From assembly GCA_905178155.1 (NCBI GenBank), contig CAJINV010000009.1, forward strand, positions 855,415 to 919,414: 64,000 nucleotides of DNA. The letters run 5' to 3'. The first letter of the stretch is position 1, and each line of letters opens with the position of its first letter. This DNA comes from Amoebophrya sp. A120 (Eukaryota > Protista > Dinoflagellata). The position numbers were made by a program, and so were the translations under genes. Below the pieces are notes generated by a model that was given only the letters and a program-made list of their open reading frames with translations, did no database searches and was not told where the DNA came from. This document shows positions 1,086-45,274 of the stretch, in pieces.

Positions 1086-2880
1086 CTAATAGGGCCGTCC
1101 TCTTGATGACGACAAACTTCCTCCCCTGCCCAGATTGTGCGGTTGGAACGAGCTGACACTCATCCGGGGATTATTAGTGCCCGACGTTGATGCCGATGCG
1201 CCCTGCTCCGGAAAGGTCGTGCTCTGTGTGGTTGCAAAACTGCTACTCATGCGGTGCAAGTTTTTTAGCCCCGGCGGAGCGCCCAGTGAAGGGAGCTCTG
1301 CAGCAGTGGCAGTTCGTCTTGGTGGACGGAATGCTAAAACGTGCATGTTCTGAACATTAGCAGGAGCGGACGAGTCGGTAACGTTTTCTTGCAAATCGGG
1401 AGAGATGTTGGTGGTCGGCTTGTCATCGTCCTGGTTTATTTCGATTCTTGCAATATCCGCGCTTCGTCCGTTGATGTTTTCATTTTCATTTTCTGGTAAT
1501 GGTAATGCGAGAAGCGCTTGCAGAGCCTTTCGGTTTCCGATGTCGAATAGGTTCTCCTTGCCGTCGAACATGTCTAGCAGTTTTTTCTTCGCATCCTCCG
1601 CAAACAGCACCGTGGAAAACACGCAGGTGTTGGGTGGGGCACAAAAACTACCTCTGTTCTTCAACATTGTCGCACTGGAAAATGATGTCGCGTTCGCTAC
1701 TTTTCCATGATTTTCACTGTCCCGCGCAGCTCCGCCAGCGGATCCCGCAGCCGAGATGGCGTTGTTCTTGTTCATCGATTCTCGGGAAGAGAACAAAGAG
1801 CCTTCTTTTTTCGTGTGCTCCGCGTACGCAAGCAGCCGCATCATTCCGTCGTTGTCCGGATTGTTCAAGGTCCTGCACCAGTGGACGTACGCCGGGCTTC
1901 GCTGCAGGATTCGCTCGAACGTGACGCCCTCGTGCTTCCCCCACGTACAGACTTCAAGCCCGCGGTTCGCGTCCGCAAAGGCCACAAGCCTTTCCACCTG
2001 GGGCTCATTCTGCTTGCCCTGAGCCACCTGCTGCCGGCAGTAGTCGATGTATCCGCCGTATCCAACAAAAAAACTGTGTTAGTGTGACTATCTTTGGCTG
2101 ACAGCATCACAAATTTGCTCTACATGTTGACAGGGAAAACCTGTCATGCTTCGTTGTAAGGGAAAGCACAGATGAAAAGAGGACTGCGTGGCTGTCTGGC
2201 ATGACGGGTGTAACTCTGTTGCATGTTCTGCATCACAGATTTACACTTACTTACACAGTTTTTTTCTTGCATACGCCGCACGTCTGCACGATCTGCGAGA
2301 ACAGCTTGCCGCGGTGCTGCCCGAACCCACACTGTTCGTCGGTATTTTTAGGCACAGCTGTGGCGTTTTCGCTATCGGTTGCTCCCGACGCGTTTGCTTC
2401 ATCGGCGGGAACCGTAACCGACGATCCGCATCTGGCTCCTGGCTTTTCATTCACTTCCTCCTGCTTCTTCACGCCAGGGTATTCTGCTGGCTGGAAATTC
2501 CTGTCGGCCAAAATGCGCTCCCGCCAGATGGGCACGTCGCGGGAAAGGGTGACGATCGTCGGTGCGCTCGCAGAAGAGAAGTTTCCGTGGTAACCGGCTG
2601 GAATAATCGAGATGTACGGGTGGAAAAATTTACAAGTCCCGTCCGCTGCGCCAGGGCAATGCCCGCCAGTCTGCATGTGCTTCCAACAGGTGCCGGGCCC
2701 GTGGTTTTTCTTTGCGTTGGAAACGAAGCTCTGCTTACGACTCGCCCAGGATTTCGTGCGGTCGGTCCAGGAACTGTTTGCCGATGCTGCGTTGGAACTT
2801 GCTTTGCCTTTACCTTTAGCGAAGGAGCTGGTACCAGCGCCGCCGCCGCGCCGACCACCTGCACCAACGCGAACTACCAT
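1086..2880 (-). CDS. CCCH-type zinc finger protein with two FGKHKG-type (ExoX-C/DUF3820-like) repeats; 2 exons, 220-nt introner intron
   Basis: ORFs 2251-2880 and 1086-2027 join in frame (IVQTCGGYIDYCRQQ) after removing 2059-2273 plus one CGCCG. Motifs: CWKHMQTGGHCPGAADGTCKFFHP, CGFGQHRGKLF, CTWGKHEGVTF. C-terminus RGRPY. Confidence 0.75.
2059..2273. mobile_element. Introner, family A; TSD CGCCG
   Basis: Ends TATCCAACAAAAAAACTGTGT / ACACAGTTTTTTTCTTGCATA. CGCCG at 2054-2058 and 2274-2278. Confidence 0.9.
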
Positions 2881-3768
2881 CTTCGGCAGACTGATCTGTT
2901 TCCTCGTTTATCAGGCAAAATCATGTACGAAAAGAAAAACTTTGTGGTTCATTTTGCTTATACTTCCCCTACTTCGGAAATTATAGAGCTCACTAAAATG
3001 AAACGAGTCGACAACGAAATTGATGAGGATCAATCGATGCTCGTGCCCGAGGCGAAGAAAATCCAATTTTCTCATCGATACTTTTTCGTCTTTTCCGGCG
3101 CAGCTCACCAACCCTTCACAGGCGTCGCTCATGTTTTTATGACGACTCGCTCTTTCTCCATGCATGCCTTCGCACAAGCCATCGAATCTTGATTCAAGTA
3201 ACAAGACAAACACGACACACACTTCAAGTCGAACTCTAGAGGAAAGCGCGCGGCTTTTTTCGTGTTCGATTCCTGCATCAAGCCCGCACTGTGGATTGAT
3301 GTTGCTGCTGCTAATTGCCGGGTGAAGCAATGGCATTCAGGCTAGCTGTACGGGTCTTCAGATTCATTGTACAGGACCGGTCTACATAGATCGCTTTTAT
3401 TTTTTTGTGGGGACAGCGACAGTAATTCATCCATAGGTTTACGCCTACGCATTCAGTGTGAAACGGGAGATTTATGTGCTAGGTTAACGTCAATGTGGAA
3501 CTTCGATAATTGATATAATAACGCTGACTTCATCCCGAAATGGATATGGAGGTGCTTGTGTGTAGAAATCTTCATGACAGGCGCTTTTCTAGTTGTATCG
3601 ACAATGCCGTGTAATGTAGATGATGACGTCAGGCTCAGGGTCAGCTTCCTTTAGGTATAGCGTTAGCTTTTCCAGCACGTTCACGTTGATGCAGCGTTCA
3701 CTTGTTTCATTCTGTCTATCGTTCCTTGCCAAGCGGGTATTTCATCTGCAACAAGTAAGAGATCATGA

Positions 3769-4623
3769 TCAATATGGTCGAGCACGCGACGGCGCGCCTC
3801 CACTAGTCCCGCCGAAATGGAAAGGACCGGCGGTGTTCTGGCCTATTGCGTCCAGCATGCGCGCAATCTGGGGGTCAAAGAAGTCCCGCCGCCCGTTGAA
3901 TATGTCGATCAGTTTTTCTTTTGCCTCGGCGGGTTTCAGATTACTGTAGAAAACAAGCCCACGAGCAGCACCACCGCTGCCAGAACTCCCTACTGGCATG
4001 GCAGCTGCCTCCGCGTCTGCGTATGCGATGAGTCGCTGCATGCCCTTGGTTGGGTTCTCGCACTTATTCTTGCACCAGTCAATGTAGCTCGGTGCGGTTT
4101 TCAAAATTTGCTCGAACGAAGTGCCCTTGTGCTTTCCGAAAGTGCACATCTCCAAGCCGCGGTTGGCGTCCGCGAAGGCGACCAGGCGACCCATGGCATT
4201 GTTGCTGCCCGACACGTTTTCCCGGCAGAAATCGACGTAATCGTGTTCGGATTTCACGATCTCGGAGAACAGCTTGCCTTTGTGTTTTCCAAAGCTACAC
4301 TCTTCGTCCTCAGGAGGCTCCTCTGTTTCATCCTCGGCTTGTTCTTCCTCGAGATCTCTGGGATTCATCTTGAACTGTTTATTCGCGAGGATCTTCGTAC
4401 GCCACTCCGGTACATCGTGGGACATCGTGATCTTCGTATCGGCCTTGGAATTATCGTCGCTGTTCATGGCCGTAACGGTCATGTAGGGGTGTTTGAAGGT
4501 GCACATACCTAACATCGGATCGCAACCACCTTCCATCTCTAGGTAGTCCCAGCACACGCCGACACCCTTGCTCTGCACACCTTCGGCGATGTAGCCCGCT
4601 TTCCACTCCTCGAAGCCGGACAT
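3769..4623 (-). CDS. Intronless paralog of the 1086-2880 gene (CCCH finger plus two FGKHKG repeats)
   Basis: Motifs CWDYLEMEGGCDPMLGMCTFKHP, CSFGKHKGKLFSEIV, CTFGKHKGTSF. Shares RLVAFADANRGLE with the paralog. Ends RARPY. Start taken at the ATG of MSGFEEW. Confidence 0.8.
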   Translation of the reverse strand: MSGFEEWKAGYIAEGVQSKGVGVCWDYLEMEGGCDPMLGMCTFKHPYMTVTAMNSDDNSKADTKITMSHDVPEWRTKILANKQFKMNPRDLEEEQAEDETEEPPEDEECSFGKHKGKLFSEIVKSEHDYVDFCRENVSGSNNAMGRLVAFADANRGLEMCTFGKHKGTSFEQILKTAPSYIDWCKNKCENPTKGMQRLIAYADAEAAAMPVGSSGSGGAARGLVFYSNLKPAEAKEKLIDIFNGRRDFFDPQIARMLDAIGQNTAGPFHFGGTSGGAPSRARPY

Positions 4624-5427
4624 TTTTGTCAGTAATGGCTGATAAATCGTCGAAATAGGACAAAATAAGATACGTCGTTGTAGTAACAAGGTTCGGGTTT
4701 ATCAAAGCGAATGCTTACTGTTAAGTTCTACAACTACAGGACGAATGTACTTTCTTATGTTTTTCTTTTTGCTTGGATGACGTTGATAAATCTCGACGTG
4801 ATTTCATCCGCTGCGAAAGAGAAAATCGAAGCGACAAGAATGCACTCGCTGGGTCGCGGCGACGATTTCTCTAATTCTGTCTCGACGTGGTCGTTTGTGT
4901 GATCAGGATCCTTTTTTTCATCAAGGGGAATAAAAACGAATCAGATCTTGTTCACGGGGGTGGTGAGAGACCACGATTACCATTTAGATGAAGCAAAACG
5001 ATACACCTTTCAATACATTCATAGTGCGTCGTCGTCAAGAGGCTAGAAGGTTTTTTAAGGTTTTCATCCCATCGGATTTCTTATCCTTGCAGTAGAAGCG
5101 AAGGACTTCATGAGGGAGCCCTACTTTTAGTTTTCTTTTACTATAGTCCGCCGTGATCTCTATCGCCGTTGCCGCATGCATCTTCAGCATCTCTCGACAA
5201 TAGAACATGTTCCCGACGGTTGTCGCCGTGCTGAGTACTATTGTACCAGCAGGAATTGCTTCTATCCGTATCTTCGCAAATAAGCTTGAATATGGCTTTG
5301 CTTTCCTTTCGAAGTAGAATGATATAAATGAATGGGCATGCCATTTGCATTTGGTGCGTTCCAGTTCCTGTTGCACTGATATAAAAAGGATCAAACTAGA
5401 TCATATCCCAACGCGCCTATGGATGAC

Positions 5428-5570
5428 GCAATCAGATCCCGAGGCACCACAAGATCCACGACAGCGCCAATCAGAAGATTCCGAGGCACACACAGATCCG
5501 AGCCACCACAAGATCCCCCCGCACCAATCAGATCCCGAGGCACCACAAGATCCAGGACAGCGCTGAGACT
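5428..5570. repeat. Short degenerate tandem repeat (CAATCAGATCCCGAGGCACCACAAGATCCA-like, about 3-4 copies)
   Basis: Copies near 5429, 5468, 5495 and 5525; overlaps the 3' end of the long ORF. Confidence 0.6.
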
Positions 5571-11093: not shown

Positions 11094-14000
11094 TCACATC
11101 CCCATGTGGATGAGCTGCGAAGCATCTTTTCGAAGCTCCGCCTGCGTGCTCGAAATGAGGCTGTCCATGAGATTGTCGCTCGACTGTGCTGCAGCTCCTG
11201 CTCGTCCTCTCCCGTCGAGTGTGATTATCTCCGACGCCGTTTTCGTTCCACCCTTCGCGTTTTTGTTGGCGCACTTGTTTAGAATCACCTTCGGAACTCC
11301 GTACCAGTCAGGATGATGTTTGGTGTTGAGCAAAACTTGCTTTACGTTCTGCATCAGCGGCCATGCGGAGTGGTGTTCCTTGTGAAGCTCGTGGTGCACG
11401 AGGGCGCCTCCATTCGCGACTGCTGCGTCCATGTGTTTTTTCAGCCAAAAGTAGAACACCATCTGGCGCTGGTAGCGGGTGTACCCCTGCGCCAGGCCCA
11501 TTTTCGTCGCGGCGGTCAGGCGAGGTAGATTTTCCTGGTCCAGCTTCCGCTTGTTTTGCCCCAGAAAGCTCTTGCAGCCGTGGTCGGGGTCTCCGGTGCA
11601 AAAGTATCGTACTCGTAGTCGTTTTGCAATCATGCATGACAATCTTCTTAAGGTTAAGGTAAATCCGCATATACAAATTTTATTTGTCATGGTCATGCTG
11701 ACGCTGAGGAAATTTGTATATGCATTTAAGTATACGAGTACAATAATTTTGCAGTTCATACGGGGTAGAGGTACTTGTTCTGAAACTCCCGCATCGGCCA
11801 GTTCCAGTTCGCGACCGCGGATATTTTCGTGCCCACGTGCCCGCTGCGGTTCTGGAGGTCGGTGCACCGATCGAATTCGTTGATGACCAAGTGAAACTGG
11901 AAGCGTTTGAACACGTGGCAGGGCAGATAGTGCGCAACGTCGATGCCTGACGACGATGAACTTTCTTCATTCACATGGAACTCTTTGGGAACCAAGTCCC
12001 CGCGGACGTAGTCAAAGTCGTGGCCGCTCGGGTAGTCCTCGCGGTGGAAAACGTGCGGGATGGCAGTTTCCACCTTCTTCTGGTAATCCTCTTCTCGCAA
12101 TTCGCCGCTGGTCATGCTGTTCCCGAGGCCGATGTCGACCCAACCATCGCGCAACGTGCTGGGCTATCCTGTGCAAAAGTATCGTACTCGTAGTAATTGC
12201 TATGATCATGCATGACAAACATCCCTTTTTAGGGAAATCAGCATTACAAATTCCATTTTTCTTCTTGAAAAAATTTGTGATGCAATTTATACTAGTACGA
12301 TACTTACTTTTGCAATGCATATGGGCGACGTGCAGTCCTCGTTCTCGCTGCTGCCGGTACTGAGAGGAAAAATCCCCCCTCCCCATATTGAAAAGGCATG
12401 TTTCCAGGAAATTGCGTTGCGGATTTGAGGTCACAAATCACATCTGTCTTGCAAGAAGACAAGGGCAGAAGCTTCCGCCCCATTATGGAAGCGATTTGTC
12501 ATGCTGTTGGGCCTAAAGGGGGGCCGCTTGCCATGCTGCACTACTAGACCCATACGCCCCTACCTAGCCTGGGGATCTGGCCGCAGTGCCTTTGTGCAAT
12601 ACAAAGCTGATTTGTGGTCACAAATCAGCATCACAAATTTTCGTTTTGATATGGGGAGGGGGGATTTTTCATTTTGATAGCCGGGAAGGCAGTGGTGGTT
12701 CTTCCACTGAACCGAAGGGCGGAGGTGGTCTAGGAAGCCATAGCTGCCGCAACTCGACATGTGCACGTGCACTGGCTTGGTGCCGTCAGTGGCGGCCTCT
12801 TGCCCGTGTTTCGAACCTGATGAATCTTCATCGTCGCTCTTCAATACATATTGCGAGTACAGGCTCCAGCGCTGGACGAACTGGCACCCTCCGCTGTGCC
12901 CTGCGACAAAAATCTCGCTCGCGAGATTCGTTTTGCGCAGCGTGTTATGCATTGCAAAAGTGTATCGCGATCGCACTACTAGAAATAGATCAGAAATTTG
13001 TCCAGAAGACAAAATTGAATTCCTATATGCTGATTTACCTGAGAGTCGAGATGAAATGTCTATGCACAGATGCAATTTATACGAGCACGAAACTTTTGCA
13101 ATGCATACGTGTTCACGATCTCGTCCAGAACCCGGAAACTAGACAAATTTTCATTGCTGTCTTGCAAATCTTGGTTCGTGCTCTCGTACCCGCGTTGCGA
13201 CAGGTAGGTCGTGTCGGCCTTCCAGTACAGATGGGTCTTGGAAACCAAATTTCGGAAAAACGGGACCACGACCGCCACGTCGTGCAGCTGCCTGTCCTTG
13301 TGCAAAAACCCCGCCCAGCCATTGCAGGTGTCGTGAACGTAGCCGCCGAGCGTGGGGTGCCAGGTGCTGGCATGCCAATACTCGCTGATCACGATGACCA
13401 CCGGCCGCGGCGCGGTGCGCTGCAAAGTGAAATCGTCTCCGTTGACGAAATCGGGGAGGTGGGGGAGATTGGTGAACGCGGTGAAGTCCTTGTGCAAATT
13501 TCTGATGTTCGCCATCTTCTGGGGCCGACAGTAGTGCGGCAGGGGGCCTGCTACTGGTTTGGAGTAGTGAGAGTGATCTGTATTTCGATTTCCGCTGTGG
13601 TGATGATTTTTGTGGTTGGCTTTCTGCGGAGGGCCGACGGAGGGCGCGATGGGCGCGCCAGCCGGAGTGCCATCGCCATCAATGTGCGTGATTGCAGGAT
13701 CTGAGTCCTTGCCGAGGATTGTGGACGATGAAGATGAAGATGATGATGAACCAGCGCTGCCAGACGAGGGCACATCGACGACGCCGGGCCTGGGAACCAC
13801 GTCAGTCGCACTCAGCGGTCGTATATCCAAAGTCTCGTCTCCGAATGCAGCGGGTCCTGTTGTCGATTCGTAAAAGAACGGGGGGATTTCTGGGACATCA
13901 GAAGATGAATCTGTGTCGAGTTCTTGGCTACTTTCGTCAGCAACTATGCCCATGTCAACATCCTCCGGCCCGTCCTCGTCGATAGTGCTCACTGAATCAT

Positions 14001-18400: not shown

Positions 18401-19413
18401 CCAGACCTCATGGGTCATGGAAAACCTGCATGACAAGTCTGGCACTCTGCCAGACCCAGACATTTTTACATTTGATAGTTCTTGTGAGTGTACCACAGCA
18501 TGTCCATCGAATCTTTCTGTGCATCGTCGTCGGTGCAGGGATCGCCCACCGCAACACCCTTCAAAGGGATCAGAACATCTTCACTTTCACTTGTTCTGCC
18601 AGCGTCTTCAGAGTTGGGCAGGTGTTTTCTACTCCTGTCGTCTTTGAACGCCTTTGCATTCCCGTCCAGAATCGCTTTCGCCAAGGTTGGAATGTAGACC
18701 CCGGCATACGATTCCCCGGTGATGTAGAAATCGTTCCCCGCTAGTGCCGGAAACTTGTTTTTGAAGAAGTCCACGAGCGCGGCGTGGCTCGCGGTGGCGC
18801 ACTGCTTGTCGGAGTTGTGGCAGGACTGGTTTTTGGCCTTCTGTACCTCACAATAACTGAACCCAACGCCAACTGGCTGCTCTAGGGCCAGCACGTGCGC
18901 GTGCTTGGTCCAGGAGTAGGGATTCTTCGCCAATTTGCCGTCCTTGTTCAGGAGCAAGGGCCCGTTCTCTTCGAGGAAACCGATCAACGAACTGGATCCC
19001 GGGCCGCCGTTCAGCCACAAGACGACAGGAATTTTACCGTTTTTGTTTTGCCGCGCAGCGAGACCGAGAGCGACTCCGGCGCCGGCCTCTGTAGTTTGCT
19101 GCTCCTCCGCCAGAGACACACCAACATCCTGATACTTTTCCGACAGGGCGAGCCAGTAATGTAAGCGACAATATCTTCCGTTTTTCTCCGTGTCGCACCC
19201 CTTCGTCGCGTCGAGGAAGCCGGAGTACTGCTTGGTTGGTGGCGGACCGTAATTCGGCAACGAGGACACCTCGTCGGGGTGGTTCGTTGGGATAGTTCCT
19301 GAAGTTGCTGGAGGGCGTACGGTGCGACTAGTCGCTGGAGATGGTGGCGCGGACACTGTAGAACTGTCGGCATGTACTGCACACGCACAGAGAAGCAGCG
19401 ACGTTTTCTTCAT
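15459..19413 (-). CDS. Serine carboxypeptidase (peptidase S10); 4 exons
   Basis: Signal peptide, QYSGFL, PVVLWLNGGPGSSS, EQPVGVGFSY, TGESYAG (catalytic Ser), NGDTD (Asp region), GSGHMVP (His). Two introner introns plus a GT-AG intron at 15837-17183. Confidence 0.95.
15930..17113. repeat. 156-bp tandem repeat, about 7.5 copies, inside a carboxypeptidase intron
   Basis: Identical phase at 16081/16861 and 16161/16941 (780 = 5 x 156). Central copies are near-identical and flanking copies are diverged. Confidence 0.95.
17622..17863. mobile_element. Introner, family D; TSD TTCCA/TTCCG
   Basis: Imperfect ~33-bp TIR TATGG...GTTACATTCTCAACTGT. Removal gives CKRAWRKFQTSASNK. Confidence 0.88.
18213..18477. 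mobile_element. Introner, family C; TSD GTTCT
   Basis: Perfect 28-bp TIR TATCAAATGTAAAAATGTCTGGGTCTGG. Removal gives WYTHKNGLVQDQEF. Confidence 0.93.
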
Positions 19414-30100: not shown

Positions 30101-33100
30101 AAGCATGAGCGTTTGCGCTCCATGTGTAGAATTATTTTTCAAGCTACTAGCCCCAGCCGGCGTCCTGGACGCCGGCGTCTAAGGGGCTAGTAGATATAAA
30201 GTCGCAGGTAGGAGTAGGGCTGCGAAGGAGCATGACAAAAGCAGCCTTGAGCTTGACCTTGAGCTTGACCTTCCAAGGCCTGCTGAGAAAATAAAGGCAT
30301 CACTTCCCAAAGCATTACCCGGCAAGCACCCGCTTGCACCTAGTTCGGCCGGGGGGACTAAAAACCGGACCGCAGTCGCTGCGAAGCGGCAACAGGTGGG
30401 TCGCCACGTAAAAGAAAGGCCAACATGCGCTGCAGACACAAAGCGCAAGACCGTCGACGGCCCGGAGGGCCGGCGACGAGAAATTTTCGCCCATGCCAGC
30501 TACTCGACCGGCAAGCGCAAAAACACAACCGGCCGAACGGGCATGGGGAGAGTCCCGAGGGCGAAAACACCGCGCCCGCGACGAGGAAAGCGCTATCTTT
30601 CTCACTTTAGCACCGATCTCGTCAATTTGTGACGGCGATCAGAGTTCGGTCAGATTTAGGTCAGAAATCCAGAATGTAATATAGGGACAGGATTTCTGAC
30701 CCAAATCAGACCTAATTCTGACCTCCGTCACAAATTCTGAACAGAGGCCATGATCTTCGTCACAAATCGGATCAGGCCCACTGATCTTCGTCACAAATTG
30801 TTGATCTCCGTCACAAATTGTTGATCTTCGTCACAAATGGTTGATCTTCGTCACAAATGGATGATCTCCATTTCAAATGGCTGATCGCCATTTCAAATGG
30901 GTGATCTCCATTTCGAAAGGCTGAAAGCCATTCAAAGTTGACGACTTCCATCCCAAATCATCCCACATCAGGCTACTGCCACATTTGCCATCCCCAGACC
31001 ACCACGTAGGCCTCGACCTTGCTTCGGCGCCTAGCCAAAGCTGAAGTCTATGGCGCCCGCACCAGGGTAGTGCGCTGCTCCATGTACCCACGTAGGGCGT
31101 AGTCAACGCATTACCGCGGTGAGGCTGTGACGCGGAAGAGAATGACCCGAAGGCACTGCTGAGATAGCTCCTGCGACGCCACCGAGTGCATCTGAAGAGC
31201 GCCCCACTTTCAAAAACCCTGTCCGTCACAAATCCGTCAACATTTGGTCAACTTTCTATTCTGCGCCGGGTGGTACAGCGTTAAAGGAGTAGGGCTGCGA
31301 AGGAGCATGACAAAAGCAGCCCTCCTTGCCCCAAACAGCACGACACCCTGGATCTGCGTGCTCCCAAAATCCGTCATGCGAAACTGTGGCTCCAACTGGT
31401 AGTTGTTGTATCGATTTTATACATTGCAAGTCGTTTCAACTTTATCGATTTCGAATCTGGCACTCCCATAAACTGATCCGTTGTAGTTAAACCAGTTGTG
31501 AACGAGGACAGCGAAGTGGGATAGATTTTGACTTGGCTTTCTCGGAAATCTTCCAATTGGTTTTGACTTTGACGTTTCCGCTGTCACGAATGTGCTCACG
31601 ATCTCTTCCAATTGCTTTCCCTTCTGCCCGAACAGAATGTTGTGGACCTTCTTCCACTGCGTCGACGAATGAAAGAGTGCCTTGGCGTCTTATCAAATGT
31701 AAAAGTGTCTGGGTCTGGAAGAGTCATGCTGTTTTTGCATGACACAGAAGGTCTGGCATGGAAGCTCTAGCATCACAGGTTCCGAGAAGCCTCCGCAATG
31801 CCGAATCCGCATGACAAGCCCCCATTTTGGTGACAGAAAGTGAGCAGCCTTGTTGCCTATGCATCAGAGATTTTTGTGTGTTCTGAAATGCGCATCACAA
31901 GTTACATCCTTCCAGACCCAGACACTTTTACATTTGATACGTCCGGCGTCGGAAACATAATCAGAGCAACGGCTATGAACTGCAGATCTGCCTGAGTTTC
32001 TCTGAAGGAATAAAAGCAAAGCTCTCGTCAGCGTCATGTTGAATTGTGCACGATCAAGACGGCGCTTCCTGTTCCACATGATGACTGCATTTTCATCGCA
32101 CGAAGAAAAAACGCTGCGCATTTCTTGGTCAAGTAAAACAGATTTTTGTGGAGTAATTATGCAAGGGAAGCACTGCAAGTCCTACAGGAGTCTCGCTCCA
32201 GTTCATTACTTACCCAGACATGTTTGCAATGCATAGCGGCGACCGGGCCGCGAATATTCCACGAGGACCGATGTCGTGAGCGCTCGTTGGCAGCCTGAAT
32301 ATTGCCCAGAAGTCTTTCCAACATTCCGCGAATTTGAATTTCGTCTTCAACTGCGAGAGGGTTTCTCTCGATGCCTTGACTTGCTCTGAAGGCGTCTCTC
32401 TCTGATATTAGTTCGGGAAGAAAAGCCAACATATCCAGTGCAAAAGTATCGTACTCGTACTTTACTAATTGCAGTCATCATGCATGACAGATCTACTTTC
32501 TAAGGGAAAACAGCATCACAAATTGCATTTTTGTTCTTGAGCAAATTTGTCATGCAGTTTATACTAGTACGATACTTTTGCAATGCATAACACACGTTTT
32601 GCAGCAACTCCACCGACATGCCAACCAGGACCTCCGGCTTCAATTCGGGACCCGCATGCTTGGGAGCCGCATACTCGCGAAGCAGTGCGCGCAAGTAAGA
32701 AGCTTGCTTCTGACGCTTGTTTAGTCGATGCATAGCCTTTTCGTTGCGCAGGATACTACTAGAAAGAAATCCCGCCACGTGCTGACCATTTTGATTCAAC
32801 TCTTCCAGCAGATTTTTTTGGAAAAGTTGAGTTGCCGTCTTCGCGGCAGGGCCCCACGGTTCCTCTGATAGCGTAAGGTGACTGAGAAAGAGCATGCGAT
32901 CCTGATCGGGGTCCGCCAGGAAGTTGTTCAGAAACACATCGCGCCAGGCCCTGGATGGGTCACTCTCAATGCTTGTGCGCAAGACATCGTGTGACGCCAA
33001 CGTACGTATTTGCTGTGCATCTTCAGCAAGATCCTCCATGCTTGTGGTTCTGGTCTCCGACGGCGAAGACATGCAAGCGGCTCCAGAGTGTTGCTCCACA

Positions 33101-34938
33101 GTGGTCCCTGGAGGTGAAGGCGAAGGCGAATGATGAGCCGCTCCAGAATGCTGCCCTGGAGGCGGTGACGCACTGGTAGCGGAGCGCAAAGAACTACGAG
33201 TCCACATACCCGACGCGGGAGCAGGAGAACTAGATGACCAAGATGACCAAGGAGGCAAGGTTGTGCGGGAGGTCCTAGTACTTTCACTCGGCTCCAAGAA
33301 CGCGAAGGGAGGCTCAATCGCCCACTTCGGTGTGGGTGCCAGGATGGGTACTAGCGCGTCCAGACTTGGATCAGGATTTTCAGAAGTTGCGCCATGATCT
33401 TCATCAATCTTCTCTGGAGATGAAGCCCTCGGAGTTGCATACATCGACGCCAAATCGTCCATCAACGTCTGCTGATCTTCCGTACGAATGATGGGGAGTT
33501 GACTTGCAAACGCCAGGAAAAACTTGACGAAGTGGGCAATTCTGCGATTTTCGAGATTCAGAACATCTTCATCGTTTCCCATCGCCGCCTTCACAGCGGT
33601 GCTCCATTTCCAGTCTAGCTCTTTGGTCGCGTCCGCAAGATCCGCTTCGTACCGCTGTATCTCTTCCCAGCGCGCTCTCAAAGCACGATCCTGCGCTTCT
33701 GGTGCTCCGTCTGCGATTTCCACCTCTTGCAGGAGCTGCGATTCCTCTATATCCTTGAACAACGTCCTCGGGTTCGCAAGAAAAAGGTATTCCGGGACCA
33801 TGGAGCGAAGCATGTGTGCGTGCTTTTTTTCCAGGCGAAAGTATTCGGCATTCTGTACCAACGCGGATTCCCAGCGAAAGAGCAGCTTCCGAAAGGGGCG
33901 ATAGAACTGCGTATAGACAGAATTCCAGTCCGCGGCGTCAAAGTGCACCCGGTACCGCTCGCGAGTCGGTCCCAGTCGGGGTCTAGCAGGATCGAGACGT
34001 ATGTATTCGGGTCCAGTGACATCTTTAATTTCGACAGCGGGAAGCGCCAGTTCGAAAGCTTTTCGTACGAATGCAGAGCTATTCCCTCGCGAGGACTTCT
34101 GCTCCAACAAGTCCACAACAAGGGACTGGGATACTGAAACACAATCCGGCAGAGATCCTACGGCGGTCCTGAGCGACGACCCTACGGCCGTCTGTCGATC
34201 TACTGGATTCGCTCTCGGCGGGACAACGAACTTTGAAAAATACTCCATCGCTTTGCCCCACATTTCTTTCCTCGCAGTGCCAAGCGCGTCTCCCTGTAGG
34301 CATCCCTGATAAGTGCGGAGGTCGCCTCTGTTTCGCAGTATGCTTTTCTGTGCCGCGAGCATTTGAATACTAAACGTTTGTGCTCGCAACTGCGCCAAAT
34401 CTTTTTCGCTTAGATGAGCGAGTTGCTCGCCGTCGTTGCTGCACATCTTGCCAGCGGCAGCCGTGTCTTGCTTTCCATCTTGCTCGTTTTGTTCCCCGCT
34501 TCTACGGCCCGTCACAGTCGCAGTCGCTCGAGTGCTGCTTTGCTGCCCGGCAGGTAAGCCAAACAACCGAGGACTGGGGCTGCGACACGTCGTCCGTGCA
34601 CTTGCCGCGCGTTTTTCTGCAGTCGCAGTTCGCTGCTCATCCGCCGATGCGGACGCGTCGAGTGTAGTTGCTTTCACGCCTTTATTTTTATTGACTTTGC
34701 GACCGCCGCGACGTTTGTGTTGTTTGCGTTTTTGTCCTGTTTCTTGCGGTTCAGGGTCACCGGCTTCGGCAGGCACGGAAAACCCTTCGTCCGTGCTTTC
34801 GGTAATATGCGGTGCTGCGGCAAAAGCGCCAAAGGCTACATGGTCGACGAGTGCAAGCCTAGTGGAGATGAGCAAGACTAAGCTGACAAGCCCAGCGCCG
34901 ACTTTCCGAGCTGACGGAAATTGTGTCAGAGCAGTCAT
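27172..34938 (-). CDS. Secreted hypothetical protein, multi-exon, interrupted by four TIR elements including the 3.9-kb one
   Basis: 812-aa ORF with a signal peptide. It continues as QNVLAFLPELISE after removing 32432-32594. WFNYNGSV joins PRINEIDTS...DVAKYVL* in frame across 27549-31475. The joins between 31.7 and 32.2 kb are less certain. Confidence 0.55.
28340..28670. repeat. 109-bp tandem repeat, about 3 copies (cassette A)
   Basis: GACTGGCAG at 28361, 28470 and 28579. Confidence 0.85.
29195..29720. repeat. Degenerate palindromic tandem repeat (cassette B)
   Basis: Alternating TTTTCGCTCGGGCAAAA and GATGGCC..GAGCTC..GGCCATC hairpin-like units, about 8-9 copies. Confidence 0.75.
30720..30935. 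repeat. ~20-bp tandem repeat GATCTTCGTCACAAATTGTT, drifting to GATCTCCATTTCAAATGG (cassette C)
   Basis: Period of about 20 nt from 30783 to 30935, with related units at 30720 and 30752. Confidence 0.8.
31691..31939. mobile_element. Introner, family C; TSD CGTCT/CGTCC
   Basis: Perfect 31-bp TIR TATCAAATGTAAAAGTGTCTGGGTCTGGAAG; same family as 18213-18477. Confidence 0.92.
32065..32235. mobile_element. Degenerate family-B introner
   Basis: Right end TTTGCAATGCATA is intact. The left end CTTCCTGTTCCA is only weakly like TATCCTGTGCAA. Removal gives GPVAALDRAQFNMTLTR. Confidence 0.45.
32432..32589. mobile_element. Introner, family B; TSD CAACA/ACACA
   Basis: Closely similar to 12165-12321 along its length; TATCCAGTGCAAAAGTATCGTACT...AGTACGATACTTTTGCAATGCATA. 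Confidence 0.9.
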
Positions 34939-37121
34939 CTTAAAGATCCTGCTGGTAGTAGTTGTGTCCTTTCTTATCGCGAAGGCGGCAAACTAGACCA
35001 CACTCCCTTCTCAATACTTCCTTCGTGACGAAAATTTAAATAAGGTAAGATTGCGAGACTTCCACCTTGCTTAAGTTCCTAGAAAACTTCTTTGATAGTG
35101 TTGAAGAAAAAGAAATACAAGAACAATACAATTACTTGCGAAATCTCTATGTTTGTGTTTCGTTTGTGCGTCTGGCGCTTAATTTAATTATGTTGATACG
35201 ACATTTACTTTTACGCTAGTTTTAATTCAAATTATCACTACTTAGTGCAATCTTTTATGAATTTTTACCTTCGATTTTCTGCGCATGCAGATGCAGTACT
35301 TGTGATACAGATATCTCGATCGGATACGATTTACGCACTACTTGCACTCGTTTTGCTTCTAGTATTAAGCCGTATGTGTAAGTTTGGTTACTTAAGTTTT
35401 TTTTGAACCGATGATGTTATCTTTAAATTCTAATATCCTACGGGATTTGAACCGTTGTTCCTCAGTAGGACCATCAACTGCACACACACTGTAATAGTAT
35501 GGAAGAAGTTGAAATGCTGTTGGTGCTTTCTCATATTCCCTTGTGCGTCGTCAACAACATGTGTCTGCGTGTACTTATCGGTGTGTGAAAGTGGTCTAGC
35601 CGGTGTGCAAGTGCGTATGAGCCGGTTGATCCTCATTTCTTTGCGAATGATTCCGAAAACATTGACATTTAGATCATTTGTGAACTTCTTTCGAAGCATT
35701 TGCGACCCAGTTGATCCAGATCCTTCTTGACATTCATATCGTAGCTGATGCTGAATTTGCATGCTGGCATTTTTCCAAGAACCTGAGAAGTCCAATGCCG
35801 CGACGATCTGGCACGACCTTAGCATTGAGCGTTTTTTTGTACACTCGCGGAACAAACAAGCGTAGGAGGTGCGACCTTCTCGTATCTGTCCATGTCGCCG
35901 TACTGCTCTGCAGGGGCGATTTCATTGTTTTTGTCTTTCTGCACATTGCGAAAACAAAGTAAGGCGAGACAACGAAGACGTCCAGTTACAGAACAGTTTC
36001 TTCACTTCAAACCCTAAACCCATAACTCATCATACATGATCAGACTGCACTCAGTCCCATTCCAAAACGCGCAAACAGGAGGAAACGTCCCCTCTGCATG
36101 CGACTGACTTTCTTGGTAGCAGCGCCCTGGGTGTGTGTTCACAGCATTGCACTTTTTTGCAAATGTAGCTTCTTCCATCGCCACCACCTCACTCTCCCCA
36201 TCATCATCTTGCTGCTCAAACTACGACTACTACTACTACTTTACTACAACTGTAACTGTTTCATCGCGTTCGTCGAATAAAGTCTTCCTTGCATTTGGAC
36301 TTCGTCTTCGACTTGGGGCGTTGAAATTGGTGGGCAGCTTTCTGCCCCCCAATTTGGGCTCAAAACTGAAGCCACGCACTCGCAACTCCAGGATCGGCCA
36401 GAAAATGGTTTGTCGCGTTTCGCGTTTAGAATTAGAAGTCACTCTTTTTCAACAGACAGCAAAACCGGAAACCTGGAAAGCCTTCAAGTATTTGAAGAAT
36501 ACTTTGAGAGCCCTAACAACTATAAACTTGGAGATCGCTGGCGTGAATTCTCGTATGCGATGTAAAGCGTACTACTTCTACTATCCTTGTTCACCCGCAG
36601 GGGCTCTCAGTTCAGGTAATGAGCTGGGCGGTGGTCCAGGTCCCTGAGTGTCTGCCTTTTTGGGAGATAACACCCAGCACCGGCCCTTCTTCCATTCCCG
36701 AGTTCTCACAAAAATCAAGACCACCGACTTGCTGCTCAAAAAAAAATCCACATTATACATTCAAATTGAAATTCGTACTACTATCGCGGTGACAGTTGTT
36801 GCTTTCTCCTCGTCATTTGAATTTATTCGTGCATGCTGCAACGCGCTTATCAATGTCAGCGTTCAAATTGAAATTGTGTTCACATTTTGAAACGCCTCCT
36901 TAAGGATACCGATACGGATAGGACGGTTCCTCTGCATGTTGATGGCGATGGCTCTCTTACAACTCTTTAGAGTACTGCTTCTACGTCCAGCACCGCACCT
37001 TTGATATTCTGAAAGAAACATGTAAACGAAAGACCACAAAGAGCGGTAGAAAAAAAACGAAAATGAGTCTGCCGGTGGTCCACCAAGTTCATCTTGAATG
37101 CGTTCACTACCGATGTCTTCT

Positions 37122-39221
37122 TCAAGTACTTTTTCTTTTCACACGCCTCGGATGTTTCTTGAAATGTTTTCTATTTTTCCATTCCTGCTTGCGCGTACGT
37201 TTGCTTTTGCAATCGAGCGCACCACCAACGATTTCTCGCACCTCCCGCTTCGATTTCTCGTCCAAATCACCCTTGTAGATTTCCTCTAGCGCGGCGCGCA
37301 CTTTCTGCAGATTTTCCCTGTCTTCGGGGCCGAGGGTAATCGAAGAAAACTTTTCGCGCAAGAGGTACCAGGGTAGCGCGCCAATGGCTTGCGGGTAAAT
37401 GTGCTCCATCTTTCCTTCTGACTGCATCTGGGTGTTGTGCTCGTTCAATCTCTCGTTCGCTTTCCGCCACTCTTGCAGCATCCTCTCAGCATCAAGATCG
37501 CGCAGCAACCCGACTGCCGACCGCGCGTTGTAACTCGGGCCGGCTCGGCATCTCTGTTGCTCATTCCAAAGCGACGCATGTGGAATGCCCGGACCGGGTG
37601 GAAAGATTTCTGGAACTACAACGCTATCACTTGATAGGAGGCTAGCGTCGCGGTAACGCTCCGCCATTTTCTCTTGATTTGTGTGTCCCCAAAACATTAA
37701 GACAAAGTTTCCGTCAGGTGGCGTTACCGCCAGGTCGGCGCCCTCCTCGCGATGCAGTTTGTCGGCCAGACAGGCAGTAGGGATAATGTGCGGCGCACCA
37801 CGGGCCAAAGGTCCGTGTTGCAAACTCGTCTCTATATTGCACGGAACTGGCGCCCCGGAAGCATCGCGCGCCGTAAAATTGTTTACACCCTTGTAGGTTT
37901 GCGCGTTCGCAATCACTAGCTGGCGCGCAACATTGCCCTCCTCGTTGCTTCGAGGTACCCACCACGAGACTACTTGACCCAAAGCCCCGCCTGCGGCACC
38001 GGTCCGGCCCCGGCGCTGGCCTGGAGATGAAATCCCCGCTGCATTGAACCACTGTGCATTCGCGGCGTAGTTGTTGTCCCTGTGGAAAAACGGCACCCTG
38101 AAACTTTTATCGAAAGGAGTAATCGAAACGTCCTCGCCATCCTCCCAGAGGACGTGGCTTAGTCTCGCTGGTGGCAGCGCGATCAGAAGGGGGGGCGCAC
38201 TGCCACTGTGAAAGCTTTCTCCTTCTTCACTTCCGCGGCGATTATTCGCAGGCTGCCGTGCAGCAAGAGCGTCCGTGATCGAAGCTGCAATGTTCTGTGC
38301 GTGTGATGTGAGCCAGCCTTTTGCATACTTTCGAGCCGGTGGATTATTTTTTGGATAGCCAGCAGGTATGAAGTTGTCACCCTCCAGGTTGTCAGGCAGC
38401 TCTATGATGTCTCGGGAAAGTAACGCCCATCCCTGCGTAGAAAGGTTTCCAGCGACTTCTGCGATGTCAGAAGTCGCATTGTCCGCAGAAGACAACACCC
38501 GCGCACCGAAATCTTGCAAAGCCTTGTCGGCAACGAGCTTGGCGGCTTTGGTCGGCATCATATCGTTTTCTGTGTCTACCTTAGACGCGTACTGAAGGTC
38601 GTGGAGTCTTCCTTCGCTTTGTGTAGCGCCGTACGGACCCAGACCACCACCTATAAGTAATTGTATATTCCATTTTACGCTGCTCAACCAATTAACTTAA
38701 CAAATATTGTTTACGACTTCTACAACTAGACCTGGTTCTACATACTAGCTGCTGCTGATGTGCATTGGATTTCTAGCACGAAATGAAAATGATTCGAGCT
38801 CCAGTAGCTGCTTCTATCAACTTGACATCTACCCAAGTAACACCCTCATCCTGAGATAATATTTCAGGATGACGGTGTTACTTCTGTGAAACATATTATT
38901 TGAGCAGATTCATATACCAGTAGGGCAGCTGTCCGTCAGTCTCAGCTGTGGGGGCTCGTCCTCCCTTAGACCAACATTAAGACGTTGTTGAACGGCTAGT
39001 TCTTGTAGCCCCGCGATGCCTGCGGCGACAACAAAAATGGCTGTCTGCTTGCCCAAACAACCGCTCGCTTCACGTTTCCCCGCAGGCCTTGACGGAGCCC
39101 GAAGTTGCGTTCGGAGAGCTGCGGTGAATTGGAACATTTCACAAAAACTGCCGACCGCAACGATAATGAACCAAAAGTAAATCGCACGCCAGCGGACTCC
39201 TTGTTGCGCACTCATTTTCAT
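37122..39221 (-). CDS. Secreted/type II membrane hypothetical protein; 2 exons (GT-AG intron 38651-38917)
   Basis: The N-terminal hydrophobic exon 38918-39221 joins the 521-aa ORF as CPTGGGLGPYG. Confidence 0.65.
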
Positions 39222-40749
39222 TTTATTCGTGCGCTGCCAACCTCAACTCTTTAAAATTGAATAGTTGCGCAGTAGTTTCTACTTGTTCTGCTTCTGACTT
39301 TTTAGGAATAGCAAACAAGACTGAGTCAAGGAAACCGAAACGATACGGATACTAAGCCATGGAGTACAATGATAATCGTTGTGCTAGAAAAAACTGAGAA
39401 GGCACGAGCGAGACGAAAGGCCAGGTGCGCAGTAGAGACGAGCGGGTGCCAAATAACAACTTGAGTAAGTACCTCGTTTGAGCTTTTACTTGCAGAAAAG
39501 CATTATATTGCAATGTAAAAAAATCAAAGTTGGATTTTGAGTAGGTCACTGTAGCCGGAGCGAACTGCGAGATTTGGTATGCTTAGCCTGTCGCGTTGGG
39601 TTGAAGAGAAGAAAGCGAAGCGAAAATAGACCCTAGCTAGAGCGGACGATTGAAAAAACATTTATAAACTGGACGATTGAGAACTCTTTGTCTTTCGTCT
39701 GGCTCGGGACAATGATAATTTTGTTTTTATTGATTATGGTTACCGACAACACGAAAATTCTTCGTTCGTATATCGGGATCCGATCGACCCCGCTTCAAAA
39801 ACTCACGCGACCGATTTCGTGGTTGATTATGATCGAGGCGTCTTTGTATTTGGCCGAGTGATTATGATCACGTGACCGACGAGTTTTGGTTGGTTATGAT
39901 CGGAATGTGTATCTTTTGGAAAAGTGACAGAAGCTGATCCTGATTTCATTTTCATTGATGACAGCGAAGCACTGCAATTTTTATGGCATCGCCTGATATT
40001 AAGCACTGACATTGACAAAGTAACTCGTCCATCCTCTAGATCCTGAGTGAAGATGGGAACTTCGTCTGCCGTTTCTGCAAAATCTTGACAATAGTTCACA
40101 TCCTGGCGCCCCCTCGCGACGTGCTGCAATTTCCAATTCTCGGCGCACGCCTGGAGCCGTGCCTCTGCTTCTGCACCGTGCAGAAAAACAAAGCTGGCAC
40201 GTTCCTGTCAATCTGATTCTGAACAGTCGTCGCGCGTAAGCGCACAGTACTTGTTATACGCACACTCCTTCCATGTTAGTCTTAGTCTTCGTCTCTGCTG
40301 GTTCGAACTAACAATGCGCTCGACTTGCACTTGCGCAGTTGACAACAGGCACAAGCAGGATTAGGATTACGAACAAAGACAAATCATGTCCGTGACCTCA
40401 CTACATACAAATAATTACATATACATCCGTACCACTGGCGTGCTTTCGATTGCTCCTACATCATAGCGATTTATTACAGAATAGTTTTATTTCTAATTTC
40501 ATATTTATATCAAGTAATATTAGTATACGTTGATGTAGTGTGGGTTTCGTTTAGGTTACATATAGCAAAGTCCTCGTCTCAAACTGAGGGGCAGATCGCA
40601 CTCGCTCTCGCGGTTGTTACATCATAATTACATGTTTTTCTTTTGATTTCGTGTGCTTAGAGTTGCTGAGCATGAAGAGCACCAGCTCGCTCGTTCAAGT
40701 CCGTGTTACTTCGTTCCCCGATGTTCTTCGTCATTCGTAACACCTTTTT

Positions 40750-43700
40750 TTATCCTCCAGCTAGTCCCTGGTCCTCATCTTCGTCGACGCGACCATTAGT
40801 CCGGCTGTTCTCGCCGCGAGTCATCGTGCCTTCGCCTTCGATGTCTTCGTTTTCGCCAGCGCCGCCTTTTCTCTTCTTTTTTCGCTCACGAAACAGTTGC
40901 CATTTGAACGCAAGCTTGCCCTGCACCGGCATATCCTTCATTTTTTCTGCGAAGCTACCACTGGTCGTGTTCTCACTGTTCTCGACTTTCTCCACATCGC
41001 TCGGAAGGTAGAGCGGCAATTCGTCCTGCTTTTGCAAAAGGCACCCGCCCTTCGCGTGCTTCCGCACCTTCAACCGGCACTCGCCGAGCAGCACGGGCTG
41101 TTTCTGGGTCAGTTCCGCGGTGAAGTCCAAATCGTTCTCGTCGTCGTTGGTTGTTCTGCCCGTGTCGTACACTTGAACCATATGCATTGCAATCGTATGA
41201 TCTATCGTAGTGGTGCTTGGTAGAACTTGCAATGCAAATTTTCTCAGAACACAAACAGCAACAGGGAAAAATGGAATTTGCCATGCTGACCCAGCTTCGA
41301 GAGCAGATTTCTCATGCATAACTGCAATTGAAGAAGTAGTACCACGGGTACGATAAAAGATATTAGTTTTGCGCCGGATAAAACACCGCCTCCAGTGACT
41401 TGCCGTCGTACGGAATTCGGGTCGTGTAGCGAAAATACGGCTTCGTCGTGCCGGAGACGACCTGCGATTGCCGCGACGCATCGCCCAACTTAATCACCGC
41501 GTAGGTGGAGGTACTCTTTAGCGAGTGTGCGCTATCCAAGAAAAAAACATTGTAGGTGTGACTTTTTTATTTTTGGAGGAACAGCATTGCAAATTTGTCT
41601 GGCATGACAGCAAAAACCTGTCATGCGCAGATAGTACGTGAAAACGCCCTTTAATGGACCCTACGATGCATGCCAAGCATGACTGACACACGCAATCATC
41701 TTGAGTGTTGCGCATCACAAATTTACACTAACAACGTTTTTTTCTTGCATATGCGCGCACCACCTGGACCAGCGCGTGGTCCTGTTTCATCACCTCCTGT
41801 TCGTAATCCTCCGTTTGCGTGTGCTCGATCAGGTCACGGGGCACCGTATAATTGATGTCACCCGAGGACATGTTCTTATTTGTTCCACCGTCCAGTCGCG
41901 ACTTCTTCCGCTCTTCCACTTTCACGGAGAGGTTCCTGGCGGCGAGTTTCGCGTTGAACAAGGAAAAGAGCTCTTTCGTGCGGTCAACTACACCGGTCGT
42001 CGGGGACGAGGACGTTGTATTTGCGACCGCAGTAGAGGACGACGATGCACCCGCGGCGGCTCCTGCGGCCGCCGCCGCAGTTGCGCCGGCAGTTCGTCCC
42101 GACGGTGACGTCGGCGATACCGTGTCGTCCAGCTCCTGACGCAAGCTGGACATCATGGTGGCGGGGGAAATGTTCTGGTCCCGATCTTCAGTCCCAGCGG
42201 GGGAGTTGGAATCGTCCCTCGTCATGTCGAAGTACTTTGCGGCTCCTGCTGCTGCAGTTGTACTAATAATCCCCCCTTGACTGTTCGCGTTCTTCAACAT
42301 CTGGTCACTGGCACGCCCCGCGTTCAAACTTCTCGTCTATGCATTGCAACGTAGTCGTATCGGAGGAGTGGGAATTGCATTTTTCTATAATTTTTTCGAA
42401 TGGAAAAAGCGAATCTGTATTTGTGATGGTGCATGAGCTTGGAAACCAAATCTCTCATACTGTACTGCAGTTTGTACGAATACGATATCGATGCTGTTGC
42501 AACGCATACTGTTATCGCATCCTCCTCGTCGTCCAGCTGAAAGAGCACCGTCTTTGCCTGCTCGGCCGCGTCTGCTCGAAGCTGCGAGAGCGGACTGCTG
42601 CTGAACGAACGCGGGGGGCTGTTACGGTAAATTTTCGCGATCTCCGACTTGGTGATCTTCTCTTCCAGTGTAGGTTCCTCTTCGACCACAACCTGCGGCC
42701 CCAAAAGCGGAGCGGTCTGCTCGCCCTCCGCGCGGGCGGTCAGGGAGCCCACCGGATGGTGCCGGTGGCGACGGGACTGATGACGTTTTGCGTTTCCATT
42801 TTCGTTTTTTCTTTTCAATTTTCTCCTCCAGAAAGGCAGACCAGAGCAAAGAGCTTGCAGCCGAAATTTTGTACTCAACATTTGAAGGAATTGAAATTAC
42901 TTAGTATGTGAAAAAGAAGATCATGTGAAAAGATATGAGCCATGAAGGAAACAGATCCAGTACGGCTTCTACCGTTGCAGCAGAAGCTCCTGCTTTTTCC
43001 GCACCGCTACCGAAGAAGTGCCACGCCAGCCCAAGGATCAACAAGCTGCACAACCCACCAACCATTTGCACGAGCGCCGTCCTGGACAAACAGATGCTGT
43101 CCGTAATCTTGAGAAAAGACGCATGAATTTGCCTAGAGCTTTAACACCCGTTAGCATGAGAAGTGGTGAATTTGTAGTGAATTTTGCATGACAAATTGCA
43201 GATGAGTCCGCCGGGACATTGTCCCTCTTGGCCTTCTGGGAAGTGGGTTCTGCACACCGCAAAAGTCAAGGCTTATGCGGCGGGCAACTTCTAGACATGG
43301 CCTGGGTGCCGTTCTTTGGCCATGTCTATTCGTCTCCCTGTGCTCGTATAAGAGCACTGCAGCAGCCGCGGCAAAGACGCCAAAAAGACAGTGCTGCGAA
43401 GCACATGCAATCAGGCAAGAAGGCGCGAAAGCAAGGGCAAAAGGACCAGGCCAAGAGCTCTGACGCGTCTATCCGGCAGGCGCGTGAGCTCTCCCGGCCT
43501 TTTCGGCAGAATATAAAGGGGCTGAGGGGGGCAGCAGAGGGCGCTTGCCTTTTCCCCTCGGCCCCACTTCCCAGGGCCTATTTGCGGACTTCCTTGAGCA
43601 CTTTTCTGCGCTAAAGTTTGCTTATCACGGTCGAAAAGGGGCGCCCGGTGAATTTTGGGGTGAATTTTGAAAAGGGCGGCGGTGAATTTTGGCCTCCGGC

Positions 43701-45274
43701 TCATGTTCAAAATGCGCTAGCGCATGGGAAACTCCGGGTTTTGGAGCTCCAGAAAAGTTTCAAAAAAAGGAAAAGTCCCAAAATTCACCAGGAGAATTCC
43801 TGACCTGGGAATCACGTCGAAGAAGACTCGAGGACCCGAACAAGATGAGGCAGGAACACAGCTGGGAAGAAGCAAGCTACAGAGCAAACAAGCAGGCGAT
43901 GCTAGCATCCATTGCAACATGTCTCCAGACATCCAAGCCGAGCCAGCCGGAACCCGTGAGAGCTACCCACTTAGATGCTCACCCAGTGCCCCTCTCCTGT
44001 TGAGGCTTCGGCCCCCTCCCTCTCGACCCACTATGAACTCCGCAGAGGCAGTGTTGTATTGTGAGACCGCCAGAGGCCGCCTTTACTTCTTGGCAACGCA
44101 CCAGGCAGCTGCAAAGACGTGCGTCTCTACTTTAGGCTCTGACAGTGAGCGTCACCATCCAAGTGACAGCCTTTCAACTACTTACACGGAACGCTGACTG
44201 CCTGGCGTCCTTCTCGCGCTCTTCATATGCCCTCTAATTCATGCATCATGCCACGCAATACAAATTCACTGCAAATTCACCCTTCTGTATGTTAACGACC
44301 GTCCAAGACATAACCATTTGCACGAACGCCGTCCTGGACAAACAGATGCTGTCCGTAATCTTGAGAAAAGAAACTTCTGGGGTTGCAGCCGACTGCAGCG
44401 AACTTGTACTCGCCGTCCTAGCATGCGTCGTGTCGTCCGCGACCGGTGGACGATTGCTGGCAGTCGGTGCATCATCATGTGCGCTTTCTGTTCGCTGCTC
44501 CCCCGACAATTTCGTACTAGTCCTTTGAGGACCTCCAATCAAGAGCTGAACCCCGTGCAGAAAATCGCTGCCCACCGCGGCAGAAATTTGCTGGAAAACA
44601 CTCCAGCTGGCAAACGGCGAGGGAAGTTTGTGCTCCCGGTCGTCGAACACCAAATACGGCTTTTCCCGGCGGAGCTTCGCTAGCACCACATCAGCTGCAG
44701 AAGGGTTTCCCGATAATTTCGTAGTGGAGCTGGTGCTGGAGCTGGTGTCACTTCCTCCTTGCTTCTCTTTCATCTTCCCAATCGCAATTGGTTTGGTGTT
44801 GTCTCGTAGTTGTCCTGCTGCAGCTTGTTTACTGTGCTGGAGGCTCGCCGTCTCGCTGGCACCCGACTCAACAAACTTGGTATTTTTAGTACGGTGCGGG
44901 TCCTCCTGCTCCTGCTGAGGATCGTGCCGATTATTTTTGCCATCCTTTGCGCGGTACTGGTAGTAGTTGTGTCGCCGCAACAGCAGGGCCGACTGTGCTG
45001 CGGTGGATTTACGTTGATGCTGTGCTGCTGAACTCACCGGCGAGGCATGATGCTGGTCGCTTGACGGTGTCAAAGCAGCAAGCACCTGGTGAGGATAGCT
45101 AATGGGAAAGGAGGCTGTCAGAAAGCAGACTGACCTCAACCTTCTTCCCTGATTTCGTCGCAGTTTCATCTTCGACGCAGCGCTTCGAGGTGCAGCGCCA
45201 AGTGAACGCTCACTATCACTACCCATTGCTGCTCTGCAGACAAAGAACTCAAACGTCGACATAGATGAATACAT
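40750..45274 (-). CDS. Membrane-anchored protein with a C-terminal C2 domain; multi-exon
   Basis: After removing elements: LVQVVRAHSLKSTSTYAVIKLGDASRQSQVVSGTTKPYFRYTTRIPYDGKSLEAVFQVYD...LLGECRL...GKLAFKWQL (C2 pattern). TM segment MVGGLCSLLILGLAWHFF. The short intron near 42880-42945 is unresolved. Confidence 0.7.
41181..41380. mobile_element. Introner, family B in reverse orientation; TSD AACCA/AAACA
   Basis: Left end TATGCATTGCAA, right end TTTTGCGCCGGATA. Removal restores the C2 frame. Confidence 0.8.
41533..41751. mobile_element. Introner, family A; TSD TGCGC
   Basis: TATCCAAGAAAAAAAC...GTTTTTTTCTTGCATA. TGCGC at 41528-41532 and 41752-41756. Homologous to 2059-2273. Confidence 0.92.
42338..42508. 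mobile_element. Family-B-like introner with an eroded TSD, forming a canonical GT-AG intron (42337-42509)
   Basis: TATGCATTGCAAC...GTTGCAACGCATA. A GT-AG splice gives EEDAITTRSLNAGR in frame. Confidence 0.75.
43120..44312. mobile_element. Expanded TIR element (family F) with a GC-rich interior, flanked by a 60-bp exon duplication
   Basis: Subterminal IR GTTAGCATGAGAAGTGGTGAATTTGTAGTGAATTT vs AAATTCACTGCAAATTCACCCTTCTGTATGTTAAC. Right terminus ATA. 43060-43119 equals 44312-44371 with one mismatch. Confidence 0.75.

Follow-up and report, generated by a model that had tools for sequence, protein, structure and literature searches.

In the present study, we analysed a 64,000-nt stretch of the genome of the marine parasite Amoebophrya sp. 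A120 (contig CAJINV010000009.1, positions 855,415 to 919,414; hereafter the window), whose genes are interrupted by inverted-repeat elements. These are the A120 introner elements of Farhat et al. 2021 (PMC7789003), a system that was already known. At three junctions seen in RNA, we found that the elements are removed together with five flanking nucleotides (element+5 nt) and independently of a terminal AG. An earlier note on this DNA had proposed that the target-site duplication (TSD) upstream of each element always supplies a G-starting donor; this rule proved to be a chance pattern and was contradicted by RNA. For A120 introners in general, which are short non-autonomous inverted-repeat elements sited in exons, we rate the chances as even that excision takes exactly five flanking bases, requires neither a G donor nor an AG acceptor, and uses a cut that is likely fixed in position.

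Excision of the elements from RNA

A census of inverted repeats of the form TAT...ATA identified 16 elements in the window, from 2059 to 42508, all within minus-strand reading frames. Fifteen of them were 157-322 nt long and one was 3,922 nt. TAT was present at both termini in 14 elements, and one terminus had decayed in the other two. Every element was flanked by a 5-bp TSD, which was perfect in 10 cases and mismatched in 6. Removal of element+5 nt left an open minus-strand frame across all 16, and retention would shift the frame for 10/16 and place stops in all three frames for five of the six others. The same removal at four elements exactly reproduced a 939-aa NCBI model, which element+2 removal did not. 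In addition, the spliced A120 models GSA120T00004052001 and GSA120T00004058001 matched window exons exactly.

Four runs were aligned to 24501-44500, a stretch with 7 of the 16 elements. The X3 contig (2,102 nt, depth 80), which was classed as RNA by a guess of the tool, crossed three of the seven (42338, 41533 and 41181), each excised as element+5 nt. The X3 junctions were taken from piece coordinates and record arithmetic, the joint table having been filled by a DNA-like run (X5). At element 42338-42508 (TSD AACAG in the 5' copy and GACGA in the 3' copy), the X3 pieces 42510-42776 and 41752-42333 abutted, and the resulting 176-nt skip could not slide; the NCBI model P0002 agreed. With k defined as the number of TSD bases retained on the 5' exon, the absence of sliding fixed k at 4 and the intron (42334-42509, minus strand) as GT..CG. 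It consisted of the element, 1 nt ahead of TAT and 4 nt beyond ATA.

From 41752 to 41175, the X3 record held 147 nt against 576 nt in the genome; thus 429 nt were skipped, the sum of 205 and 224 nt. The 224-nt intron belonged to element 41533-41751 (span 41528-41756), whose perfect TSD GCGCA allowed six placements, none of them GT-AG. The 205-nt intron belonged to element 41181-41380 (span 41176-41382; TSD TGTTT / TGGTT). Since the low X3 piece ended at 41175, the 5' copy TGTTT was kept in the transcript. It followed that k was 3, 4 or 5, with the placements TT..GG, TT..GT and TA..TT, respectively, and that the sole G of this upstream TSD stayed exonic and was not the donor. P0002, a model that may not be independent of the X3 run, has Phe at 41181, which requires k of at least 3.

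GT-AG was therefore impossible at all three RNA-spanned elements, no nearby GT-AG pair was used at any of their junctions, and the two RNA-phased junctions (42338 and 41181) cannot end in AG. These results supported the AG-independent excision that the earlier note had suggested and that had been published in general terms (PMC7789003). The note had also looked to elements with mismatched TSDs for phasing by RNA, and at 41181 this approach yielded no AG end but no G start either. As this intron starts with TT or TA and leaves the G in the exon, the suggestion that the 5' site is recognised normally through a TSD-supplied G did not hold. An element+2 excision mode, suggested by the NT..AN classes in Table S4 of PMC7789003, was rejected, because the NCBI model P0003 and the three RNA skips were all element+5.

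The X5 run crossed elements 41181 and 42338 without a break, and its summed depth over the terminal inverted repeats (TIRs) was very high, reflecting genomic repetition of the elements. The raw RNA run X9 matched only a TIR and one 30-nt stretch. The X3 contig covered the genes patchily and halted at the AG of a canonical GT..AG intron (GTAGAA...CATCAG; 42777-42972, minus strand), which lies in the gene of element 42338 and is present in P0002; the RNA piece stopped at 42776. The tract ahead of the CAG of this intron was A-rich, not pyrimidine-rich.

G content of the target-site duplications

The base composition reported by the earlier note was largely reproduced. On the minus strand, the upstream TSD ended in G at 2059, 11590, 12946, 21290, 31691 and 42338 (6/16), and excision from a G|TAT donor at these elements would give the 3' ends GC, CC, AC, CG, AC and CG, in that order. 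The dinucleotide GT was found in the TSDs of 21681, 27549, 32432 and 41181, but the fifth case, 43120, was not a 5-bp-TSD element and corresponds to the 1.18-kb element near 44312 described below. The six remaining upstream TSDs contained GC or GA. A G was thus available in 16/16 upstream TSDs of the window, but not beyond chance. The background probability of at least one G in a coding-strand 5-mer was 0.82 in host coding sequences and 0.85 locally, for which 16/16 corresponded to P = 0.039 and 0.071, respectively; shuffling of the TSD letters gave 0.056. For G at the last TSD base, 6/16 compared with a background of 0.28-0.30 (P = 0.27-0.42).

A larger sample was obtained by scanning metagenome contigs with one window TIR, which gave at least 137 loci; the 80 loci listed were all on JACKZZ contigs. 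This related genome yielded 147 TIR pairs, with a perfect TSD in 123/147. Nine pairs with three or more TSD mismatches and one duplicate were removed before counting, leaving 137, and a further 60 fell below the thresholds for strand and open reading frame (ORF), leaving 77 with a confident strand and an open frame. Among these strand-called exonic TSDs, 62/77 contained G against a background of 0.819 (p = 0.77). The corresponding counts were 38/45 under strict strand calls and 115/137 overall, and G stood at the last TSD base in 24/77 against 0.289. A GT..AG or GC..AG placement was feasible for only 6/77 elements. Fifteen of the 77 TSDs lacked G, and two of these (AAATA and TTTTT) had no G on either strand. 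Pfam supported the host gene and strand at two of the 15 sites, a gamma-tubulin complex gene (E 8e-18) and, weakly, a cyclophilin gene; the strand at the other 13 was called by a codon-usage score. At the former site (L072:600-852), the element with the G-less TSD TCCTC lies inside a gamma-tubulin complex component gene. These results indicated that the G content of TSDs did not differ from background, the very outcome that the earlier note had said would count against its rule.

The orientation of elements in the related genome was 12:12, showing no bias. An orientation bias with TATG at the 5' end, apparent in the window, was ruled out by this count.

Position of the cut

We propose that the cut would fall one base ahead of the terminal TAT and four bases beyond the terminal ATA. 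The intron would then start N-T-A, where the +1 base would be the last TSD base, whatever that is. The U at +2 and the A at +3, which a normal GTA-type 5' site also has, would come from the TIR. At the 3' end, TSD bases 3-4 would form the dinucleotide, which would hence be free of constraint, and the symmetry of the TIR means that either insertion orientation would work. We infer that this register is fixed for all elements, that the TIR acts as the 5' signal and that the spliceosome catalyses the excision. We regard the fixed N|TAT register as a new and testable lead with an about even chance of being correct.

Three junctions constrained the register. The allowed k was 4 only at 42338, 3-5 at 41181 and the equivalents of 4-6 at the annotated junction of a 1.18-kb TAT-type element near 44312 (about 43134-44312; span 43126-44313, minus strand), and only k = 4 was common to all three. 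The possible first base of the annotated 1186-nt intron near 44312 is A, T or T, never G. Furthermore, among the 101 related elements that were stranded with confidence under thresholds set beforehand, 6 had a decayed TAT at the sense 3' end and none had one at the sense 5' end (p = 0.03); both decayed termini of the window were also at the sense 3' end. This 3'-sided decay and the 12:12 orientation are in keeping with a fixed register.

Several observations weigh against a fixed register. When all 173 strand calls were used, the terminus decay was 6 versus 4 (p = 0.75), and one related element (L100) had lost the initial T of what appears to be its 5' end, albeit with a weak strand call. Only two junctions were phased by RNA, both in the same gene and on the same contig, and by our own estimate they favour a fixed over a random register by only about 2:1. 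In the X3 data, the 147-nt piece and a single A>C difference entered the analysis without their letters. The annotated intron near 44312 extends 6 bases beyond the element end instead of the 4 that the register would give. Finally, in the A120 dinucleotide classes of Table S4, which are all NT-, a fixed register fitted 7/9 and aligner sliding fitted 6/9 in a simulation whose sliding rule was our own, patterned on aligner behaviour. Because both fitted about equally, the table was dropped as support: its classes are compatible with a fixed register but do not discriminate.

The earlier note had suggested that the 3' site may be placed by the TIR hairpin or the TSD register. Folding prediction for 15 elements, the 3.9-kb element being excluded, gave a TIR stem in 13/15, with P of about 0.8 or higher inside positions 8-11. 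No such stem was predicted in 42338 and 41181, the two phased elements, whose predicted terminal stems were the weakest of all, and the folds lend the hairpin no support in this role.

Other readings of the junctions were compared with a fixed register. The ends might be joined near the TIR tips and cut at any point within the five duplicated bases, with element+5 removed in every case. Such a variable register is compatible with both phased junctions, would accommodate the different 3' offset of the 44312 model, and agrees with a published legend that calls the sites variable (PMC7789003); but k = 4 was common to all three constrained junctions and the 5' TAT seems better preserved than the 3' TAT, and we consider it rather unlikely. 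The cut may also lie at G|TAT if the TSD ends in G and otherwise at another TIR-defined site, for example the first T of TAT. Both RNA junctions fit this mixed rule (42338 with GT at k = 4, 41181 possibly with k = 5), and base 5 of the 42338 TSD is G in the 5' copy and A in the 3' copy. The advantage of a GT donor should nevertheless leave an excess of G at TSD base 5, which was not observed in the related genome, so that the mixed rule is also unlikely.

The two remaining explanations fared much worse. The view that a G-starting donor is always present and used in the upstream TSD draws on the 16/16 window TSDs (P 0.04-0.07) and on the 42338 intron, which does begin with G. Against it stand the 41181 intron, which cannot begin with G, the 15/77 G-less exonic TSDs of the related genome, AAATA and TTTTT being G-less on both strands, and the G-less site in the gamma-tubulin complex gene, whose strand is backed by Pfam; these observations make it highly improbable. 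It is equally hard to credit that the skips are reverse-transcriptase template switches across the hairpin between the direct repeats, or empty-site alleles. A hairpin with a direct repeat is the classic substrate for template switching, and X3 was counted as RNA by a guess only. Yet microhomology is absent from the 42338 junction, the weakest folds are those of the two phased elements, and X3 stops at the AG of the canonical intron and covers the genes patchily; the frame shifts and stops that retention would cause also speak against it.

Elements of the window and related systems

The other elements of the window are all on the minus strand and are given here with the span in brackets. Element 2059-2273 (2054-2278) has the TSD CGGCG. 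It lies in the first of two adjoining paralogous minus-strand genes (1086-2907 and 3769-4698; 74% identity over 80 nt at 1909/4106), the second of which has no element; an ExoX-like_C match in this pair was weak (E 0.001, below the cut-off). The next four are 11590-11760 (11585-11765; CCCCG), 12165-12321 (12160-12326; GCCCA), 12358-12679 (12353-12684; CCGGC) and 12946-13107 (12941-13112; ACACG). The 3' terminus is decayed in 11590 (TCT on the plus strand), the removal of which agrees with P0003, and in 12358 (TAC on the plus strand). A tandem repeat at 15884-17119, with a 156-nt unit in about 7 copies of 92-98% identity, is open on the minus strand. The elements 17622-17863 (17617-17868; CGGAA / TGGAA) and 18213-18477 (18208-18482; AGAAC) share one serine carboxypeptidase gene as host, and are followed by 21290-21601 (21285-21606; TCCGG) and 21681-21906 (21676-21911; CACGT).

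The 3.9-kb element 27549-31470 (27544-31475; CAGTT) is packed with internal repeats, including four copies of a segment of about 45 nt (27699, 29141, 30196 and 31271), tandem arrays and hairpins, and is likely the product of nested insertions. A Pfam search with three ORFs from this element gave no match, and no transposase gene was found inside it. Element 31691-31939 (31686-31944; GGACG / AGACG) belongs to a very high-copy TIR family and is followed by 31974-32235 (31969-32240; GCCGC / GCCGT). At 32432-32589 (32427-32594; TGTGT / TGTTG), which the RNA did not cover, the cut position decides between Leu, Trp and Cys; the only model for the host gene in the protein database is a single-exon one of 695 aa, and the exon behind 32432 is without any model. 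The 1.18-kb element near 44312, an intron by annotation only, lies between copies of a duplication of about 57 nt, and at 43063-44372 the NCBI model retains both coding copies and removes 1186 nt.

All long genes examined in the window (1-64000) were on the minus strand, and the census found TAT elements only between 2059 and 44312; the long ORFs at 47-60 kb were free of them. The region 60500-63300 is rich in repeats, among them long perfect hairpins and tandemly arranged palindromes of 98 nt. A larger transposon may lie between the arms 60529-60592 and 63202-63265. A scan of viral contigs for the TIR gave no match.

In the parts of PMC7789003 consulted, A120 introners have inverted repeats beginning with TAT and an A-run, with direct repeats of 3-5 nt, for which the legend of Fig. 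S19 gives 5 bp. Non-GT-AG introns make up about 65% in A120, alongside canonical introns, and U1 snRNA was undetected; the introns show no clear dinucleotide signature and their sites are variable. The window elements share the TAT and A-run TIRs, the 5-bp direct repeats, the non-GT-AG ends, the repeated copies and the host strain. The text of that paper, as far as consulted, states neither a register rule nor a G-donor rule, and its Figs 3 and S19-S25 may show the register. A full-text literature search found no such rule for A120 introns, and none was stated in the consulted portions of PMC12130899, PMC12005148, PMC11282704 and PMC11453091.

Two other systems were compared, likewise from portions of the published texts. 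The introners of Symbiodinium and Polarella are TIR elements with TSDs that form introns without changing mRNA length, and in Polarella class 12 the splice site comprises the last TSD base and the first element base (Roy et al., bioRxiv 10.1101/2020.10.14.339549; Gozashti et al. 2022, PMC9860276). A filter there selects insertions with a G-starting TSD (GHNN) and an AG acceptor, whereas the A120-type TSDs were at background; in A120, a G donor is not supplied by every TSD, and neither the element end nor the TSD provided an AG acceptor at the phased junctions. The pairing of +1 G with 3' AG that marks U2-type introns was likewise seen at neither RNA-phased junction. The nonconventional introns of Euglena carry the signature N3CDG...CH'GN5-6|R and occur beside canonical introns (Nomura et al. 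2025, PMC12501133). They resemble the A120 introns in being non-GT-AG beside canonical ones. Their paired ends and their cuts at a fixed distance from a terminal motif may also have counterparts in A120, where a TIR stem was predicted in most folded elements but in neither phased one. The A120 elements differ in carrying TAT...ATA as their motif and a TSD of 5 bp, and T is the first base of the exon that follows the 41181 intron. Neither phased junction had CDG at intron positions 4-6.

Both the elements and their non-GT-AG splicing have been described before, and the question at stake is the mode of recognition. Under a G-donor rule, there would have been nothing unusual about the 5' side, and this rule fails. 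What our data point to is splicing for which neither terminal dinucleotide is needed and for which insertions are filtered neither by site nor by orientation. Should the N|TAT register be true genome-wide, the A120 introns with 'no signature' would reduce to a simple code, thousands of intron borders would be corrected, and the signal for an altered spliceosome would be named. The +1 G and the 3' AG are the two bases that the spliceosome pairs for exon ligation. It is conceivable, though we lean slightly against it, that a one-plus-four positional code splices tens of thousands of A120 introns and that both bases are dispensable. Any exon insertion, in either orientation, would then splice cleanly, which would explain why the invasion is unfiltered and why U1 snRNA has apparently been lost.

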